This document shows, in pieces, positions 7,015-59,790 of a stretch of 64,000 bases of DNA (position 1 is its first letter; each line of letters opens with the position of its first letter). The translations under genes and the position numbers were made by a program. Origin of the DNA: a virus. A model generated the notes under the pieces. It ran no database searches, was not told where the DNA came from, and worked only from the letters and a program-made list of their open reading frames with translations. Location: IMG/VR virus record IMGVR_UViG_3300044644_001556; one strand, given 5' to 3'.

Positions 7015-7030
7015 ATTCTTTACTATTCGG

Positions 7031-7066
7031 GGTTAGTTAAATATAATATTTAACTAACCTTTTTTT
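7031..7066 (+). terminator. terminator hairpin containing a TAAATA late-promoter-like motif
   Basis: GGTTAGTTAAATA/TATTTAACTAACC stem plus T-tract. Confidence 0.55.
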
Positions 7067-7072
7067 ACTATT

Positions 7073-7675
7073 ATGAAATTACAAGAACTTATTTTAGAAT
7101 CGCCCGTTTTAACCGATAAAATATCTAACTATTTAGATAACCCGGTTAAAAATCAAAGTCAGTTAGAAAAATTTTCGACGATGCATAAACAGCATTTATT
7201 TGACTTGGGAAAATATACACACGTATTTAAAATTTATAATAATAATGATGAATATTATATAGCTATAGATAGTCATGATATGAAAATCGTTTATTATATG
7301 TCATATAATTTTACTAGCGTTCCTATATTGGGCATGGCAGTAAACCAATCATTTGTTTGGTTAGATAAAGATTACCCACACACTAAAGGATTACCGAAAA
7401 AAATGTTCTTTGATTATTTGTTAAAAGAACATAATATAGTCATTACTGATTCAATTCAAACTTGGGATGGTCGTGATTTTTGGTTAAGACGATTATTAGA
7501 AGCGTTTCAAAAACATTTACATGTTTATTATATTGATTTATCGAAAAATCATATAGAACCAGTTATGCGATATATGGATGTTTATAAATTAGATAAGAAA
7601 TATCAAATATGGGCTCCATTAGATTTAAATGCATACGATAGACGGTTAATTATTTCCACTACTGAATTATTATAA
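7073..7675 (+). CDS. hypothetical protein, possibly GNAT-like
   Basis: 200 aa; ITDSIQTWDGRDFW motif; N-terminus MKLQELILES. Confidence 0.5.
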   Translation: MKLQELILESPVLTDKISNYLDNPVKNQSQLEKFSTMHKQHLFDLGKYTHVFKIYNNNDEYYIAIDSHDMKIVYYMSYNFTSVPILGMAVNQSFVWLDKDYPHTKGLPKKMFFDYLLKEHNIVITDSIQTWDGRDFWLRRLLEAFQKHLHVYYIDLSKNHIEPVMRYMDVYKLDKKYQIWAPLDLNAYDRRLIISTTELL

Positions 7676-8139
7676 TGACTACTAGCTTAGATTTAATAAA
7701 AAAAGACTTAAAACATTTAGATAAAATTATAGAAATATACACTGAAGATTTAAACGAAGCCGATATTTTATTAAAATTAACTAATAAAAAAATCGATATG
7801 GCTAATGCCGAGCATTCGGGTTGGAAAAATTATTATCATGCAAAAGAAGTAGAAGTCAAATATTTAAAAGAATACGTTCGATCCAAATTAGATGAAGTCC
7901 ATGGTGAATTATGGGTAAAATATACTGAAAAGATGGATCGAGTATTAACTCAAAAAGATAAAGAACAATATATTAGAAGAGAACCAATTTATTTAAACAT
8001 ATTATCAGAATTTTTAAAAATACAAGAATTACATGAGCAATTTGTTAGATTAAATGAAAGTTTTACTACCAGAGGCTATGTATTAAATAATTTAACTAGA
8101 TTAATTACATCAGATACTAATGATTGGATCATACCGTGA
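7675..8139 (+). CDS. uvsY: recombination mediator UvsY-like protein
   Basis: Helical 154-aa protein ending RGYVLNNLTRL, positioned between uvsX and uvsW. Confidence 0.7.
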   Translation: MTTSLDLIKKDLKHLDKIIEIYTEDLNEADILLKLTNKKIDMANAEHSGWKNYYHAKEVEVKYLKEYVRSKLDEVHGELWVKYTEKMDRVLTQKDKEQYIRREPIYLNILSEFLKIQELHEQFVRLNESFTTRGYVLNNLTRLITSDTNDWIIP

Positions 8140-10148
8140 GTGATAAACCTACTATTAACGTAACTATACATGACGAAGTAAAATGCCAATTTATCGGTAT
8201 TGATAAAACCACAATTGATTACTTATATAATAAATTTAGCTTATTTGTAGAAAATTATAAATTTAACCCTAGATTTCAATTAGGTGTTTGGGATGGTAAA
8301 AAGCAATTTTTTACTAAACAAGGACAAACCTTTGTTTACCTTATGCCTGAAATTATTTCAATTTTAAAATCTAGAAATTATAATATTGAAATAATTGATA
8401 ATAGAAGTCTACCTTTTTACGACGTCAGTGATCCGATAGAAAAAGATTACTTTAGTCATATCATCAATAAAAAAACAAAAAAACCTTACATGTTAACGGA
8501 TCACCAGCATGAAGCTATTAATAAGATGTTACCGATTGGTAGCGGTATAGCTTTAGCTGGAACCGGCTTCGGTAAAGCACAACCTCTATATTGTAAAATA
8601 TTAACGCCTACTGGTTGGACTACTATGGGTGATATCAAATCAGGAGATTTGGTATTTACGCCTAAAAATACGGTTGCTAGGGTGGTTAATACGTACGATC
8701 AAGGTATTACTGACGTTTATAAAATTAATTTAGATGATGGTGGTGTAACTTACTCGCATATAGATCATTTATGGAAAATTTATAATCAAAGATGGTTATA
8801 TAGTGGAGAAGAACCTTTTAGTGTAATTTCTACTAACGAGATTATGGATATATTGAATAATACATCAAAAGATGTTTATTTGCCGGTTATTCCAATACCA
8901 ATTAATTTTAAAAAATATGATTATCATATCGATCCGTATATCACCGGTTGTATATTACCGTTCGTTGAAATCGAAAATGATCAATTAATCATTAAAGAGC
9001 GCAAAGCTAGTACCCATACCCACAGCGAAATAAAAATATCTAATCTTATAGATACATTTAAACAATACGGAATTATTATCAAATATTATGATAAAATCGG
9101 TAGATTAGAAGCGGAAAATAATTCCGGTCAGTTTATTATTGAGGCTGCTAAATCTACCATTATAAATCAAATGGAAATACCGACCACTTACGTATTTTGT
9201 GATAGTAATGATAGATTGCGTTTTTTGCAAGGTGCTTGTGATGTAGGCGGAACATTATCGAAAAATGGACAAATAAGTTTATCAATCCCAAATACTAGAA
9301 TTAAAAATCAAATTAGAGAAATGATTTTACTTCAAGGTGGGTGCCTTGATCCGTTAAATAATAGATCTAGTTACAACAAACGATTAAACTCGACAATTTA
9401 TTTTACTCATCATTATCCAGATGCGTTTTTTACTGAGTTAAGTAAGAAAAAACATTATATTTTACATAAAACGGATAATAGATCGAAATTATCTAAGAAT
9501 AGAAAAATTGTTAGTATTGAACATATCGGACAGGAACCGACTAGATGCATATACATAGATGACGCAGATCATCTATATATTACGGATGATTGTATTATTA
9601 CACACAATACCATTTTAAATGCTACTATGTGTGATGTTTATGCAAAGAAAGGATGCAAAACTTTAACTATAGTACCGGCTACAACATTAATTAATCAAAC
9701 TATTGCTCAATTTAAAGATTTAGGATTATCTGTTGGTCATTATAATTCCGAAAATCAAGATTTAGAACCAGATCATATAATTATGACATGGCAAACATTA
9801 AAGAATTATCCGCATTTGATCAAATTATTTCAGATGGTGGTAGTTGATGAATGTATTGCTGGATCTTCTAGTATTTTATTGGCTAATGGTTATACTAAAT
9901 TAATTCAAGATATTGCAGTTAATGACATTATTATGTCATTTGACGAGGAAGCCGGATATTTCGTAAGTGATCGAGTTAGTAAAGTACATAAAAATTTATT
10001 AAAATCATCTGATGAATTGATGTACGAATTGGAATTCGATAATGGGAACATTTTACAAGTAACTGGAAATCATTTAATTTTAACAGAAGGGGGTTATAAA
10101 CGAGCAGATCAATTAACGGAGGAAGATGAAATAATTAACAGTGGGTGA
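8136..10148 (+). CDS. uvsW: UvsW-like SF2 helicase, N-terminal precursor (cis-intein plus N-half of a split intein)
   Basis: F.P.F..G.WDGK N-domain, AGTGFGK, IVP, TWQ, VVVDE; GTG start overlaps uvsY stop (GTGA). Confidence 0.9.
   Translation: MSDKPTINVTIHDEVKCQFIGIDKTTIDYLYNKFSLFVENYKFNPRFQLGVWDGKKQFFTKQGQTFVYLMPEIISILKSRNYNIEIIDNRSLPFYDVSDPIEKDYFSHIINKKTKKPYMLTDHQHEAINKMLPIGSGIALAGTGFGKAQPLYCKILTPTGWTTMGDIKSGDLVFTPKNTVARVVNTYDQGITDVYKINLDDGGVTYSHIDHLWKIYNQRWLYSGEEPFSVISTNEIMDILNNTSKDVYLPVIPIPINFKKYDYHIDPYITGCILPFVEIENDQLIIKERKASTHTHSEIKISNLIDTFKQYGIIIKYYDKIGRLEAENNSGQFIIEAAKSTIINQMEIPTTYVFCDSNDRLRFLQGACDVGGTLSKNGQISLSIPNTRIKNQIREMILLQGGCLDPLNNRSSYNKRLNSTIYFTHHYPDAFFTELSKKKHYILHKTDNRSKLSKNRKIVSIEHIGQEPTRCIYIDDADHLYITDDCIITHNTILNATMCDVYAKKGCKTLTIVPATTLINQTIAQFKDLGLSVGHYNSENQDLEPDHIIMTWQTLKNYPHLIKLFQMVVVDECIAGSSSILLANGYTKLIQDIAVNDIIMSFDEEAGYFVSDRVSKVHKNLLKSSDELMYELEFDNGNILQVTGNHLILTEGGYKRADQLTEEDEIINSG
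8577..9608 (+). mobile_element. cis-splicing intein, 344 aa, class 3 signature, degenerate LAGLIDADG-like domain
   Basis: GK|AQPLYCKILTPTGW start; block B HLW; block F TRCI; end ITHN|T; FLQGACDVGG. Confidence 0.85.
9852..10145 (+). mobile_element. split intein N-fragment (IntN, 98 aa)
   Basis: DE|CIAGSSSILLANG block A; VTGNH block B; GYKRADQLTEEDEI then tandem TGA TAG stops. Confidence 0.9.
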
Positions 10149-10188
10149 TAGAACCGCATTTATTTACAAATTTTTTTAGGTCATAGAT

Positions 10189-10428
10189 ATGCAACATCAT
10201 TTTAGTATTGAAAAGTATTACAAAGGATTAGAAGACGGATACGTAGAAAAGTCAAAAATATCACAGCGAGTAAATTCGCCCCGATGTTGCGATCCATTAT
10301 TAATTCCGTTTATCTATAATGACCGAGGAGAAAAACAGTTTATAAGTGACGGTGATAGAATTGCAATAATAGATGGAGTTAAGATAATTAAATCTAGTAT
10401 TGTCAGGAAATTTAAAAAATACATATAG
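10189..10428 (+). CDS. hypothetical protein between the split-intein halves
   Basis: 79-aa ORF; no recognised motif. Confidence 0.55.
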   Translation: MQHHFSIEKYYKGLEDGYVEKSKISQRVNSPRCCDPLLIPFIYNDRGEKQFISDGDRIAIIDGVKIIKSSIVRKFKKYI

Positions 10429-10438
10429 AGGCACTAAA

Positions 10439-11014
10439 ATGAGTAACGAAAATGAAGTAACCATTAATAATGGAAATAATGGTAACAATAACGGAAATAA
10501 TGGGAATTCTAATAACGGAAATAATGGGAATTCTAATAATGGAAATAACGGAAATTCTAACAATAACGGTAATCACGATAATGGCCATTCTGGCAATAAC
10601 GACAATTCCGGGAATGGCGACAATTCGCATGATAACAATAACAACGATAATTATATTAATCCTGATGTTGATAGCGATATCCATGAGTTAGATGATATTG
10701 GTGATTCGGATAATATCGACGTAGAAGATCACGACGGTGATAATCCAATCAAACGAATATCATTATATGATTACGATGAAGTTTATTATTCGTTTGATTT
10801 ATCTAGAATAAGTTCTATAGTTATCCACAATAGCAAAACATTTGCTCAAACTGTTAGCTTAAGATTAGAGATAGATAGTACTAAAATTTATAAATTTTAT
10901 ACTAATCATAGAAATACAAAAAATGTTAAAATCGAAAGTTCATTTATTGAACAAGATACTTTTAGACAATTAGTTATAGACTTAGGTTTATACGATTATA
11001 GATTTCCATTTTAA
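10439..11014 (+). CDS. hypothetical protein with Asn/Gly/Asp low-complexity N-terminus
   Basis: ATG 10439 preceded by AGAGG; NNGNNGNS repeats, acidic tract, then a globular-looking C-terminus. Confidence 0.65.
   Translation: MSNENEVTINNGNNGNNNGNNGNSNNGNNGNSNNGNNGNSNNNGNHDNGHSGNNDNSGNGDNSHDNNNNDNYINPDVDSDIHELDDIGDSDNIDVEDHDGDNPIKRISLYDYDEVYYSFDLSRISSIVIHNSKTFAQTVSLRLEIDSTKIYKFYTNHRNTKNVKIESSFIEQDTFRQLVIDLGLYDYRFPF
10487..10558 (+). repeat. three tandem 24-nt units encoding NNGNNGNS
   Basis: AATAACGGAAATAATGGGAATTCT twice exactly, third copy degenerate. Confidence 0.85.
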
Positions 11015-11030
11015 ATGATGAGGAGATGAT

Positions 11031-11363
11031 ATGGAAAATAACGATTTTATTAACGTAGAGCTTTTTATACGTGGTCCGGATTTCCATATCATCGAACCTA
11101 TAGCCGATAAGTGGGCTGATGAGTTTGATTGCTATAGCATTATTAACTGCGGTTATCATTCGGCTTATATTTTTGAGGATTTTAATGTAATATATAAACT
11201 GAAACATTATAAAAATACTTATCTGCCAATATTAGCTGAAAATTTACCAGAAAATGCTTACGTTTTAAATATAACGGATTGGAATGGTAATATTATATAT
11301 ACCGCCGGCAAATATAATATAGATAGAGATAATTCAAAAATAGTCCATCATAGATATAATTAA
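11031..11363 (+). CDS. hypothetical protein between the split-intein halves
   Basis: 110 aa; GAGGAG RBS; stop 1 nt before the IntC gene. Confidence 0.65.
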   Translation: MENNDFINVELFIRGPDFHIIEPIADKWADEFDCYSIINCGYHSAYIFEDFNVIYKLKHYKNTYLPILAENLPENAYVLNITDWNGNIIYTAGKYNIDRDNSKIVHHRYN

Positions 11364-11364
11364 A

Positions 11365-11469
11365 ATGAAATTAATTAAAAGAACATTAATAGAAAAACCA
11401 GAATATGTTTATAATTTAGAAGTAGAAAAAAATCATAATTACGTCGCAAATGGCGTTGTAGTTTCAAAT
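11365..11469 (+). mobile_element. split intein C-fragment (IntC, 35 aa)
   Basis: MKLIKR...VYNLEVEKNHNYVANGVVVSN|C blocks F and G. Confidence 0.9.
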
Positions 11470-12279
11470 TGTCACGGATCAAAAGCAAAAACACTATATG
11501 AATTATTAACGGATTATGGTCAACATATAGTCCATAGATATGGATTAACCGGGACGTTACCGAAAGATCCAGTTAATAAATTACAAGTTCATATTGCGTT
11601 AGGTCATGTAAATTGTTCGTATTCAGCAAAAGATTTAATTGAATCTGGTTGGCTAGCTCAGCCTAATATTACCGTCGTTCAATTAGATGATATTCAATGC
11701 CTTCGAGATGGGGGCGTTAAAAAACCGCACGATTTAATGTACGAAGAAGAAGAACATTTTATCAAATCAAATACTCAACGATTACAATGGTTAGCTGATC
11801 GTATAGTAGCCGATTCTAAAAAATCAAAAGTAGGTAATACTTTAGTTTTAATCAATAATATTAAATTCGGTAAAGAATTGGGTGCATTGATTCCAAATTC
11901 ACATGTTTTAAATGGTTCGAATAAAGATTCAGCTAGAAAAGCAGTTTATGATTTATTCGAAACTAATGATGATGTTATTGCGATCTGTACTAAAGGTATA
12001 GCCGGCGTTGGATTGAGCGTCGATCGTATTTTTAATTTGGTGTTTATTGATGCTGGCAAATCATTTATAGCGACTATTCAGCAAATAGGTAGGGGTCTAC
12101 GAAAAGGTAGAGATAAAGATTCGGTTAATATTTCCGATATCTGTAGTAATATGACGTCAGCTGATGCCCGAATGAAAAAACGAATTGCTTATTATAAAGA
12201 AGCCGGGTATCCATTTAAATTAACTCAAGCGCAATATCATAAAAATACTGAAGTTGACGATATCTTCAATATTGATTGA
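11365..12279 (+). CDS. uvsW: UvsW-like helicase, C-terminal precursor (IntC plus helicase motifs III-VI)
   Basis: After the intein: CH, GLTGT (motif III), GVGLSV (motif V), QQIGRGLRK (motif VI). Confidence 0.9.
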   Translation: MKLIKRTLIEKPEYVYNLEVEKNHNYVANGVVVSNCHGSKAKTLYELLTDYGQHIVHRYGLTGTLPKDPVNKLQVHIALGHVNCSYSAKDLIESGWLAQPNITVVQLDDIQCLRDGGVKKPHDLMYEEEEHFIKSNTQRLQWLADRIVADSKKSKVGNTLVLINNIKFGKELGALIPNSHVLNGSNKDSARKAVYDLFETNDDVIAICTKGIAGVGLSVDRIFNLVFIDAGKSFIATIQQIGRGLRKGRDKDSVNISDICSNMTSADARMKKRIAYYKEAGYPFKLTQAQYHKNTEVDDIFNID

Positions 12280-58713: not shown

Positions 58714-59790
58714 TTAGAAATGGGTGTAATCAAAAAGTTCTTCATTCCATTGATGTTTTGCATAGTAAATAATTTTATGAGAAGATGGAGTTCCAACTAC
58801 GCAAGTAGTATCTAGATTATCTTTCGATAATGGATTTACAATTTCATAGATATGGCACGGGCAATCTGGTCTCGCGGCGCGGCCAATCAATTGATTTAAA
58901 AAGCTATAACTACCGACATTAAGACCGATAACGACAGTATGACAATTTTTAACGTCAATACCTTCGCTTAATTTTTTACAACTAACTATAAATTTAACGG
59001 TTCCTTCACTAAATTGTTCTAAAATATCTTCAACTTCCTGTTTATTTTGATCTAATAATGCGACTGACGAATATCCTTTAGATAAGATATGATCATTAAT
59101 TCTGGTTACTTCTTTTTTAGTTTTAGCAAAGATCAAAGTACCATTCATCTGATCCGCATAATTATCGAATATATCAATAATAATTTCGGCCTTAGACCGT
59201 TCCGAACCATCAACTATAGTATGTAGATGAGTATCAGCTAAAAACCCTTGATTAACTGCTTCTTCGCGGCTAATAGGATTAATGATTTCTTCGAATTTAA
59301 TAATCATACCATCAGCTCGATCAGGAGTCGCAGTTAAACCAATTAATGGAATCTCACCTACCAACGTATCCAATTGATACTGCATTGAACTACATGCTTC
59401 ATGATGGGCCTCATCTAAGACCGTAATATCCCAACCTTCATCTATAACCGATTGTGGAATATCCGACATCATTGATTGTAAAATTAATTCTACATTACTA
59501 TCACCGATAAATGTTTTTTCAGCCTGAGTTAATAATCGATGAGTATGAGCAATAAACATTACTCTTAATTTACGATCAGTTACCCCTAATATTTCAGCTA
59601 ATTCTGGGCATCCTAAAGTACAAGCAATAGTTAATGTTTTCCCAGTTCCAGTCGGTAATACAACTAAGATTCTTTTTTTACCATCATTAATAGCTTGGAT
59701 AGATTGATTTCGAGCTGCAATTTGATACCAACGAACCGACTTATCACCATATAATTCATCAACAGATAATTCTTGGACTTGTTCAGACAT
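58714..59790 (-). CDS. SF2 DEAH-box helicase (ResIII-like)
   Basis: PTGTGKT, DEAHH, GLTATP.R, LSEGID, QLIGR..R. Confidence 0.9.
   Translation of the reverse strand: MSEQVQELSVDELYGDKSVRWYQIAARNQSIQAINDGKKRILVVLPTGTGKTLTIACTLGCPELAEILGVTDRKLRVMFIAHTHRLLTQAEKTFIGDSNVELILQSMMSDIPQSVIDEGWDITVLDEAHHEACSSMQYQLDTLVGEIPLIGLTATPDRADGMIIKFEEIINPISREEAVNQGFLADTHLHTIVDGSERSKAEIIIDIFDNYADQMNGTLIFAKTKKEVTRINDHILSKGYSSVALLDQNKQEVEDILEQFSEGTVKFIVSCKKLSEGIDVKNCHTVVIGLNVGSYSFLNQLIGRAARPDCPCHIYEIVNPLSKDNLDTTCVVGTPSSHKIIYYAKHQWNEELFDYTHF

Follow-up and report, generated by a model that had tools for sequence, protein, structure and literature searches.

In this study, we analysed a 64,000-nt stretch of viral DNA (IMG/VR record IMGVR_UViG_3300044644_001556; "the window" below refers to this whole stretch), in which the coding sequence of a UvsW-like helicase of superfamily 2 (SF2) is divided between two genes on the same strand. 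The division is very probably that of a naturally split class 1 intein of canonical layout, with an N-terminal half (IntN) of about 98 amino acids (aa) and a C-terminal half (IntC) of about 35 aa, located at the DE/CH sequence of motif II (a slash within a motif marks the point of insertion here and below), and a covalently whole protein would then need protein trans-splicing. This reading is supported by every in silico test that was run, which concerned the catalytic residues, selection, co-folding, colinearity and the conservation of the split. From the anatomy of the locus, its conservation in relatives, the selection acting on it, the predicted docking of the two halves and the colinearity of the helicase pieces, we infer that the halves splice.

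Two genes together encode one UvsW-like helicase

The first gene (gene A), defined from the list of open reading frames (ORFs) and by direct reading of the sequence, occupies 8136-10148 of the plus strand and encodes 670 aa from its best start, a GTG at 8136 that overlaps the upstream stop. Its tail reads ...QMVVVDE/CIAGSSS...VTGNH...EEDEIINSG up to position 10145, where TGA TAG follows (10146-10151). The second gene (gene B), also on the plus strand at 11365-12279, encodes 304 aa; its ATG at 11365 comes 1 nt past the stop of the preceding ORF and is separated from the gene A stop by a gap of 1216 nt. The head of gene B is a 35-aa segment, MKLIKRT...NHNYVANGVVVSN, which is followed by CHGSKAK and the Helicase_C lobe. 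Counted from the GTG at 8136, the three exteins of 147, 81 and 269 aa sum to 497 aa, and they are interrupted by a contiguous intein of 344 aa (intein 1) and by the 98-aa IntN and 35-aa IntC (Table 1). A preliminary description of this DNA had reported that the first gene ends in VVVDE and a 98-aa IntN with Cys1, TGNH and an acidic end, followed by two stops, and we found this to match the sequence to the residue; the second gene that it placed about 1.2 kb downstream, with a 35-aa IntC ending in SN before CHG, is likewise as described, and its extein counts, amounting to about 497 aa, were reproduced exactly with the GTG start.

The profile search for Hint and intein domains that had been suggested as a check gave matches on both fragments. 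In gene A, Pfam identified UvsW_N (aa 11-89), DEAD/ResIII, Hint (aa 575-660; 31.8 bits with a cut-off of 29.7) and the N-terminal part of Intein_splicing (aa 593-671), the last two on IntN; in gene B, it identified the C-terminal end of Intein_splicing at aa 7-35 (profile positions 127-155 of 155, the last 29) together with Helicase_C. The matches on both halves are far more than chance would give.

The host protein has the UvsW_N domain and the SF2 core with motifs I, II and III-VI that define a T4-type UvsW by Pfam. When the exteins are joined, they align without gaps at GK/T and DE/CH to uninterrupted UvsW_N-bearing helicases of 490-502 aa, with 44-48% identity, and VVVDE/CHGSK lines up without a gap on the VVVDECHGAK of unsplit homologues. 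The C-extein is 35-41% identical to UvsW-like helicases of jumbo phages. A tblastn search of the 64-kb window with an unsplit homologue found one uvsW in three colinear pieces.

Catalytic residues and predicted docking of the intein halves

The intein at DE/CH possesses the features of class 1: the nucleophile Cys at position 1, the block B T-x-x-H (VTGNH) and a terminal Asn followed by Cys+1 (VVVSN/CHG). It is also an in-frame insertion, the removal of which restores the conserved host motif. In alignments of 20 diverse relatives (A2 for IntN and A3 for IntC), E-1, Cys1, the block B T-x-N-H, the terminal Asn (N35), Cys+1 and His+2 are invariant. IntC is exactly 35 aa with a Met start in all of the more than 30 loci, and IntN ranges from 94 to 102 aa across relatives. 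Both halves matched inteins only when compared with the sequences of the PDB. The best matches of IntN were the DnaB mini-inteins (E ~1e-3), and NrdJ-1 was also matched (E=0.026); IntC matched a BIL/Hint domain, Spl DnaX and the Npu DnaE IntC (E ~0.15-0.7 for the last). A relative that carries a natural contiguous version at the same site (L063) gave an AlphaFold2 (AF2) model with a HINT fold (pLDDT 84.7), for which the TM-score was 0.85 to NpuDnaB (4o1r; 27% identity), 0.80 to the NrdJ-1 split-intein fusion (8ubs; 30% identity) and 0.78 to Npu DnaE (4kl5), with gp41-1 also among the matches.

The co-folding of IntN and IntC, which had been proposed as a check and in which each half was given as an alignment, yielded an ipSAE of 0.79 (0.78-0.80 in three runs) as compared with 0.02 for the best control. 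The partner pLDDT was at least 79, and at least 91% of the contacts were common to the runs. The mark used for docking was reached by 58 of 80 solved complexes and by 2 of 110 mismatched pairs. Because split-intein complexes have already been solved, a pass in this assay shows likeness to solved complexes as much as it shows binding.

One could envision that the two halves dock and hold the helicase lobes together as a non-covalent clasp without forming a peptide bond. Docking is indeed confidently predicted and could by itself restore a two-lobe SF2 helicase, and the lack of the penultimate His and the presence of Asn instead of Asp in block F, described below, would be in keeping with this scenario. 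However, Cys1, T-x-N-H, the terminal Asn and Cys+1, none of which is needed for a clasp, are invariant across lineages whose exteins are just 25-40% identical. The split lies inside the DE/CH catalytic motif, and approximately 133 aa of retained intein would therefore occupy the ATPase site. Moreover, the contiguous versions found in three relatives (L036, L063 and L074) must splice, as the gene would otherwise be dead. We think that a clasp is improbable for these reasons, and that the halves act as a trans-splicing intein.

The split in independent assemblies and the selection acting on it

A strain that is 96.4% identical to the window at the DNA level is represented by independent assemblies of at least five sequencing runs (L100-L104). 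Its layout is the same: gene A encodes 670 aa and ends at the same stop, the three ORFs of the gap recur, and gene B encodes 304 aa. The split layout was found in more than 20 distinct IMG/VR contigs. The assembly, for which confirmation had been called for, is thus reproduced in at least five independent cases with no sign of mis-assembly. A search of positions 9700-11600 with Rfam under an E-value threshold found no intron family, and gave a chance snoRNA-like match only; a scan for promoters and terminators gave nothing that exceeded the shuffled background. In relatives, the gap ranges from −4 nt, in which stop and start codons overlap, to 1378 nt, and each half has its own stop and its own Met. 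RNA-level joining is therefore unnecessary, given that some gaps are of −4 nt or of only 15-51 nt. The explanation that the 1.2 kb results from mis-assembly, or is excised from the transcript as an intron to leave a contiguous intein for translation, has nothing found in its favour; it is at odds with the shared stop, ORFs and ATG of the independent assemblies, with the Rfam result, with the adjacent or overlapping halves of relatives and with the purifying selection on the gap ORFs, and we regard it as close to refuted.

Substitutions were counted with respect to the 96.4%-identical strain, and the resulting ratios of non-synonymous to synonymous rates (dN/dS) rest on small counts throughout. 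The ratio was 0.10 for IntN (9 synonymous and 4 non-synonymous changes), 0.11 for IntC (2 synonymous and 1 non-synonymous), 0.04-0.10 for the exteins and 0.07 for intein 1. As far as these ratios indicate, both intein halves are under purifying selection, as are the exteins. This result bears on the alternative that uvsW is a decaying or dispensable gene, disrupted by a mobile element and without function in this phage. Such a history might be suspected from the two inteins and three foreign ORFs that the gene carries, and the sequence analysed is a 64-kb part of the genome. It is difficult to reconcile with a dN/dS of 0.04-0.11 over all exteins and both intein halves, with helicase motifs that are all intact and colinear and with an arrangement retained in many diverged lineages, and it is, in our estimation, very improbable.

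Several points weigh against the conclusion that the intein is active and that the helicase depends on it. The penultimate residue of IntC is Ser and not the usual His; relatives have Ser, Ala or Lys at this position, with His in Salmonella phage S16 only. At position 4 of block F, an invariant Asn is present family-wide where Asp is usual. Both deviations occur in active inteins, and neither residue is known to be obligatory; the Npu DnaE intein, for example, ends in ASN, and the Mxe GyrA intein has Ser at F:4. The charge complementarity of the two halves is weak: the net charge is −10 for IntN and +1 for IntC (+2 over its first 15 residues), and the IntC of the 20 relatives ranges from −3 to +5. 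Of the complementarity that had been noted previously, the acidic character of IntN holds, and the basic character of IntC does so weakly. The copy count of uvsW covers the 64-kb window, and an intact second uvsW elsewhere in the genome is possible. Finally, we found no published demonstration of splicing for this intein family in the accessible literature.

A proposed route to the contiguous helicase

The observations suggest the following sequence of events. Gene A would be translated into the N-terminal lobe fused to IntN, from which the class 3-like intein 1 would be excised in cis with restoration of GK/T. Gene B would be translated into IntC fused to the C-terminal lobe, seemingly through translational coupling to the stop codon of the gap gene before it. 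IntN and IntC would dock to form a single HINT fold, a thioester would be formed at Cys1 and attacked by Cys+1, and cyclisation of the terminal Asn35 would release the product, an unbroken helicase chain of about 497 aa whose junction reads VVVDE-CHGSK. As for its origin, the locus is the member of the "fractured gene" class that has uvsW as its host gene; relatives have a free-standing PD-(D/E)xK/NUMOD3 endonuclease gene in the gap, and in the clade of the window three unrelated small conserved genes stand in its place. We would word the earlier proposal that active helicase can arise only by trans-splicing as a probable reading, since non-covalent complementation is possible and since cis-splicing of intein 1 would be required as well.

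Intein 1 resides at the GK/T of the Walker A motif. It begins with Ala directly after GTGFGK, carries the Trp and Cys residues and ends in THN/T, and a phmmer search matched it at both ends to class 3 inteins of the PDB, MchDnaB-1 (6rix, 4e-9) and Msm DnaB (Msm DnaB-1; 6bs8, 4e-8). In its central ~240 aa, no recognisable endonuclease domain was found in Pfam. Intein 1 is kept in the clade of the window and in L036. It must splice in cis for a whole helicase to be made.

Relatives present a series of gap states

Among the 120 protein clusters with the best matches to gene B, approximately 60 are 279-335 aa long; 19 of these were aligned with gene B. All 19 start with MK[LIV]..., carry NHNY or a near variant and have an intein end of the form [SA]N/CH. 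Uninterrupted homologues of 473-510 aa are also present among the clusters. The DE/CH split was found in dozens of metagenomic phage lineages, usually with a free-standing endonuclease gene between the halves, and the contents of the gap differ among them. In eight loci (L015, L033, L035, L050, L054, L058, L060 and L064), a gap of about 905-960 nt holds an intact, free-standing endonuclease gene of 295-325 aa. The endonuclease is decayed in others, being reduced to 160 aa in L017, to 87 aa in L072/L073 and to two fragments in L088. No gene is present in the gaps of L038/L041 (−4 nt), L049 (15 nt) and L071 (51 nt), and a contiguous mini-intein of 134-141 aa occupies the same site in L036, L062/L063 and L074. 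The intact endonuclease matches phrog_22417 and phrog_15427 (annotated "endonuclease") as well as the Pfam families TnsA-like N and NUMOD3, which would place it in the PD-(D/E)xK "Vsr-like + NUMOD3" type of the fractured genes described by Dassa et al. 2009 (PMC2677866).

One family thus offers a natural series of stages, in which the endonuclease is intact, decayed or lost with the halves adjacent or overlapping, the mini-intein is contiguous, or the gap has been refilled. This series makes the "gene-breaking" model of split-intein origin directly comparable inside one family. In a tree of the exteins, the intein-bearing genes are patchily distributed: in one clade of 22, nearly all members carry the intein, and the clade of 7 that includes the window (support 99) is nested among intein-less genes. 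The patchy distribution is consistent with horizontal spread or with repeated loss, and on this tree the contiguous forms (L036, L063 and L074) may be either ancestral or re-fused.

Two other loci were noted among these phages. L034 contains an apparent second fractured gene, in which the ORF at 7016-8662 ends in an IntN-like segment (...TNL/CVSGDTT) and the ORF at 9413-10474 starts with an IntC-like segment ending in ILIHN/CVEI, with about 750 nt between them. In L014 (4632-7169) and in a 205-kb contig of P0022, the split uvsW is followed, a few genes downstream, by the gene for an 845-aa AAA/RuvB-like ATPase, which contains a contiguous intein and gave a faint LAGLIDADG match; phages of the L014 and P0022 type carry many inteins.

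Motif II itself varies among the uninterrupted homologues in alignment A1. Some keep the Cys (DECH in P0028 and P0065, DECQ in P0049), and others have DEAH or DEVH (L039, L070, L089 and L093). The alleles with Cys in motif II may have lost an intein or may be sites competent for homing.

The gap genes in the clade of the window

In the clade to which the window belongs (L001-L005, L023, L025, L105/L106 and others), the gap never contains an endonuclease gene and always contains an ORF of 75-93 aa immediately after the IntN gene, which is ORF79 in the window. Only 20 clusters homologous to ORF79 were found in 5.8 billion proteins, and every context checked was a uvsW gap. Two further conserved ORFs are present in a subset of the clade that includes the window. 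None of the three gap ORFs matched Pfam or PHROG families; a tblastn search for the relatives' endonuclease in the gap found nothing, and the comparison of the gap-ORF alignments with the endonuclease alignment by hhalign gave a probability below 1%. Because no family, tblastn or hhalign match was obtained, the gap genes can be ruled out as endonuclease remnants.

The AF2 model of ORF79 is a small beta protein of moderate quality (pLDDT 71.8), for which Foldseek found nothing below E=1 in the PDB and a search of Atlas features gave no usable match. Both ORF79 and the third gap gene, ORF110, are under purifying selection as judged from dN/dS relative to the 96.4%-identical strain. The second gap gene starts with an Asn/Gly-rich stretch of NGNNGNS repeats (10439-10640), the length of which differs between the window and the 96%-identical strain (a gene of 183 aa in L100); the conserved C-terminal half of the gene is shared with L002-L004. 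One speculative interpretation is that the gap genes, with ORF79 as the clearest candidate, are functionally tied to the split intein, either as a new selfish cassette that resides in the gap or as factors that time or gate trans-splicing. We consider such a tie unlikely. If gating did occur, UvsW activity would be controlled post-translationally during infection by two inteins, a class 3 intein in cis and a class 1 intein in trans.

Features of the locus and its surroundings

The coordinates of all segments are given in Table 1. Upstream of uvsW lie genes for a gp32-like single-stranded DNA-binding protein and a UvsX-like recombinase, and an ATP-dependent DNA ligase gene is located downstream; the phage from which the window derives is large and uncultured, and its replication and recombination module is T4-like. 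A megablast search of the locus against phage records gave no match. Elsewhere in the window, a 357-aa ORF at 58714-59790 on the minus strand matches only positions 270-618 of the 986-position DNA helicase family phrog_16, and could belong to a further helicase that is split or interrupted by an intein.

Table 1. Segments of the divided uvsW locus and of its gap, with positions in the window
Feature	Position	Strand	Basis and remarks
Extein 1 of uvsW, 147 aa	8136..8576	+	UvsW_N domain and motif I up to GTGFGK; Pfam UvsW_N E=1e-7; gapless at GK/T relative to unsplit homologues
Intein 1, 344 aa, contiguous, class 3-like (Ala1 ... W ... C ... THN/T)	8577..9608	+	At GK/T of Walker A; phmmer against the PDB
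Extein 2, 81 aa	9609..9851	+	From Thr+1 of intein 1 through VVVDE, the first half of motif II (Walker B)
IntN, 98 aa	9852..10145	+	Cys1 (9852-9854), block B VTGNH, acidic tail; Pfam Hint and Intein_splicing
Double stop TGA TAG, end of gene A	10146..10151	+	Sequence; stop also in the 96%-identical strain L100
Gap gene 1 (ORF79), 79 aa	10189..10428	+	Cluster 1; kept in every member of the window's clade, always directly 3′ of the IntN gene
Gap gene 2	10400..11014	+	Cluster 2; TTG start gives 204 aa; ATG 10439, with GAGG upstream, is the likelier start (191 aa); Asn/Gly-rich low-complexity N-half, conserved C-half
Gap gene 3 (ORF110), 110 aa	11031..11363	+	Cluster 3; stop 1 nt before the gene B ATG; dN/dS 0.02
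IntC, 35 aa	11365..11469	+	Blocks F and G, end VVVSN; Pfam Intein_splicing
C-extein, 269 aa	11470..12279	+	CH of motif II, then motifs III-VI; Pfam Helicase_C

Comparison with known inteins and fractured genes

The intein resembles the split DnaE inteins of Npu and Ssp (4kl5, 1zde) in its layout of N- and C-terminal halves, in its Ser-Asn/Cys end and in the HINT fold (TM 0.78 to 4kl5 for the fused relative L063). The halves of the Npu DnaE intein are about 102 and 36 aa long. Unlike the pair described here, the DnaE inteins reside in another host protein and in another type of organism, and the genes for their halves lie at distant places in the genome. The sequence similarity is marginal (E ~0.15-0.7 for IntC), and no DnaE intein was found among the sequence matches of IntN. 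We have rejected membership in the cyanobacterial DnaE group because the host is UvsW and no significant sequence similarity was detected. The resemblance to that group stated in the preliminary description therefore holds for the layout, whereas the solved inteins nearest in sequence and fold are the DnaB mini-inteins and NrdJ-1. The Npu and Ssp DnaB mini-inteins (4o1r, 1mi8, 6frg) gave the best sequence matches of IntN (E ~1e-3) and the best fold match of L063 (TM 0.85); they differ from the pair in being bacterial, in residing in the DnaB helicase and in being contiguous or artificially split. The atypically split type (VidaL, AceL-TerL), with an IntN of about 15-30 aa and a long IntC, was also rejected, given the 98-aa IntN and 35-aa IntC of the window.

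Dassa et al. 2009 (PMC2677866) described fractured genes that combine split inteins with a free-standing homing endonuclease (gp41-1, gp41-8, NrdJ-1, NrdA-2 and IMPDH-1), and gp41-7 is reported there as a variant without an endonuclease. The hosts in that study include gp41, IMPDH, DnaE, NrdA, NrdJ, ligase and terminase, and neither UvsW nor the DE/CH site is among its eight enzyme types. The locus in the window is like these fractured genes in several respects. A phage gene of DNA metabolism is cut at a conserved catalytic motif into two ORFs on the same strand; the split is canonical (an IntN of ~100 aa and an IntC of ~35-40 aa), and each part has its own stop (TGA TAG) or start (ATG 11365). 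Relatives of the window have a PD-(D/E)xK and NUMOD3 endonuclease gene between the halves, others lack it in the manner of gp41-7, and association of the halves is predicted (ipSAE 0.79 versus 0.02). It is unlike them in that the gap of the window contains three non-endonuclease genes and in that uvsW also holds a class 3-like cis intein, and it has little similarity in sequence to gp41-1 or NrdJ-1 (E=0.026 for NrdJ-1).

The same element is present in cultured phages, namely Salmonella phages S16 (NC_020416), STP4-a and SEA1 (uvsW_1/uvsW_2) and Proteus phage PM2, with weaker matches in Lak phages. In S16, the N-terminal lobe and IntN make up gp114, a full-length phrog_22417 endonuclease (2e-197) is encoded as gp114.1, and gp115, annotated as UvsW, consists of IntC and the C-terminal lobe. 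The S16 halves are 97 and 35 aa long and are encoded by separate ORFs on the same strand with the same DE/CH site; they are 49% (IntN) and 51% (IntC) identical to those of the window. Unlike the window, S16 has no intein 1, has an 828-nt gap with the endonuclease gene and has the penultimate His, and its C-extein is just 25% identical. The GenBank records list two "DNA helicase" genes and a hypothetical protein, with no intein annotated. No description of a split intein in UvsW was found in the literature; subscription papers were outside the search, and a prior description is possible.

With a homologue in the cultured Salmonella phage S16, UvsW trans-splicing could be tested in a real infection. 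The pair would also be one more candidate for protein ligation, as an intein that has Cys1, Cys+1 and an IntC of 35 aa and shows little similarity to Npu DnaE, gp41-1 and NrdJ-1; since it is remote in sequence from these three, the orthogonality to inteins in use that had been suggested is plausible. Fractured genes with split inteins are known as a class, and the element itself is present in databases, both in S16 and in metagenomic phages. What is new with respect to the list of Dassa et al. is the UvsW host and the DE/CH site, by which naturally split inteins would be extended to a new host protein and a new position, motif II of an SF2 helicase.

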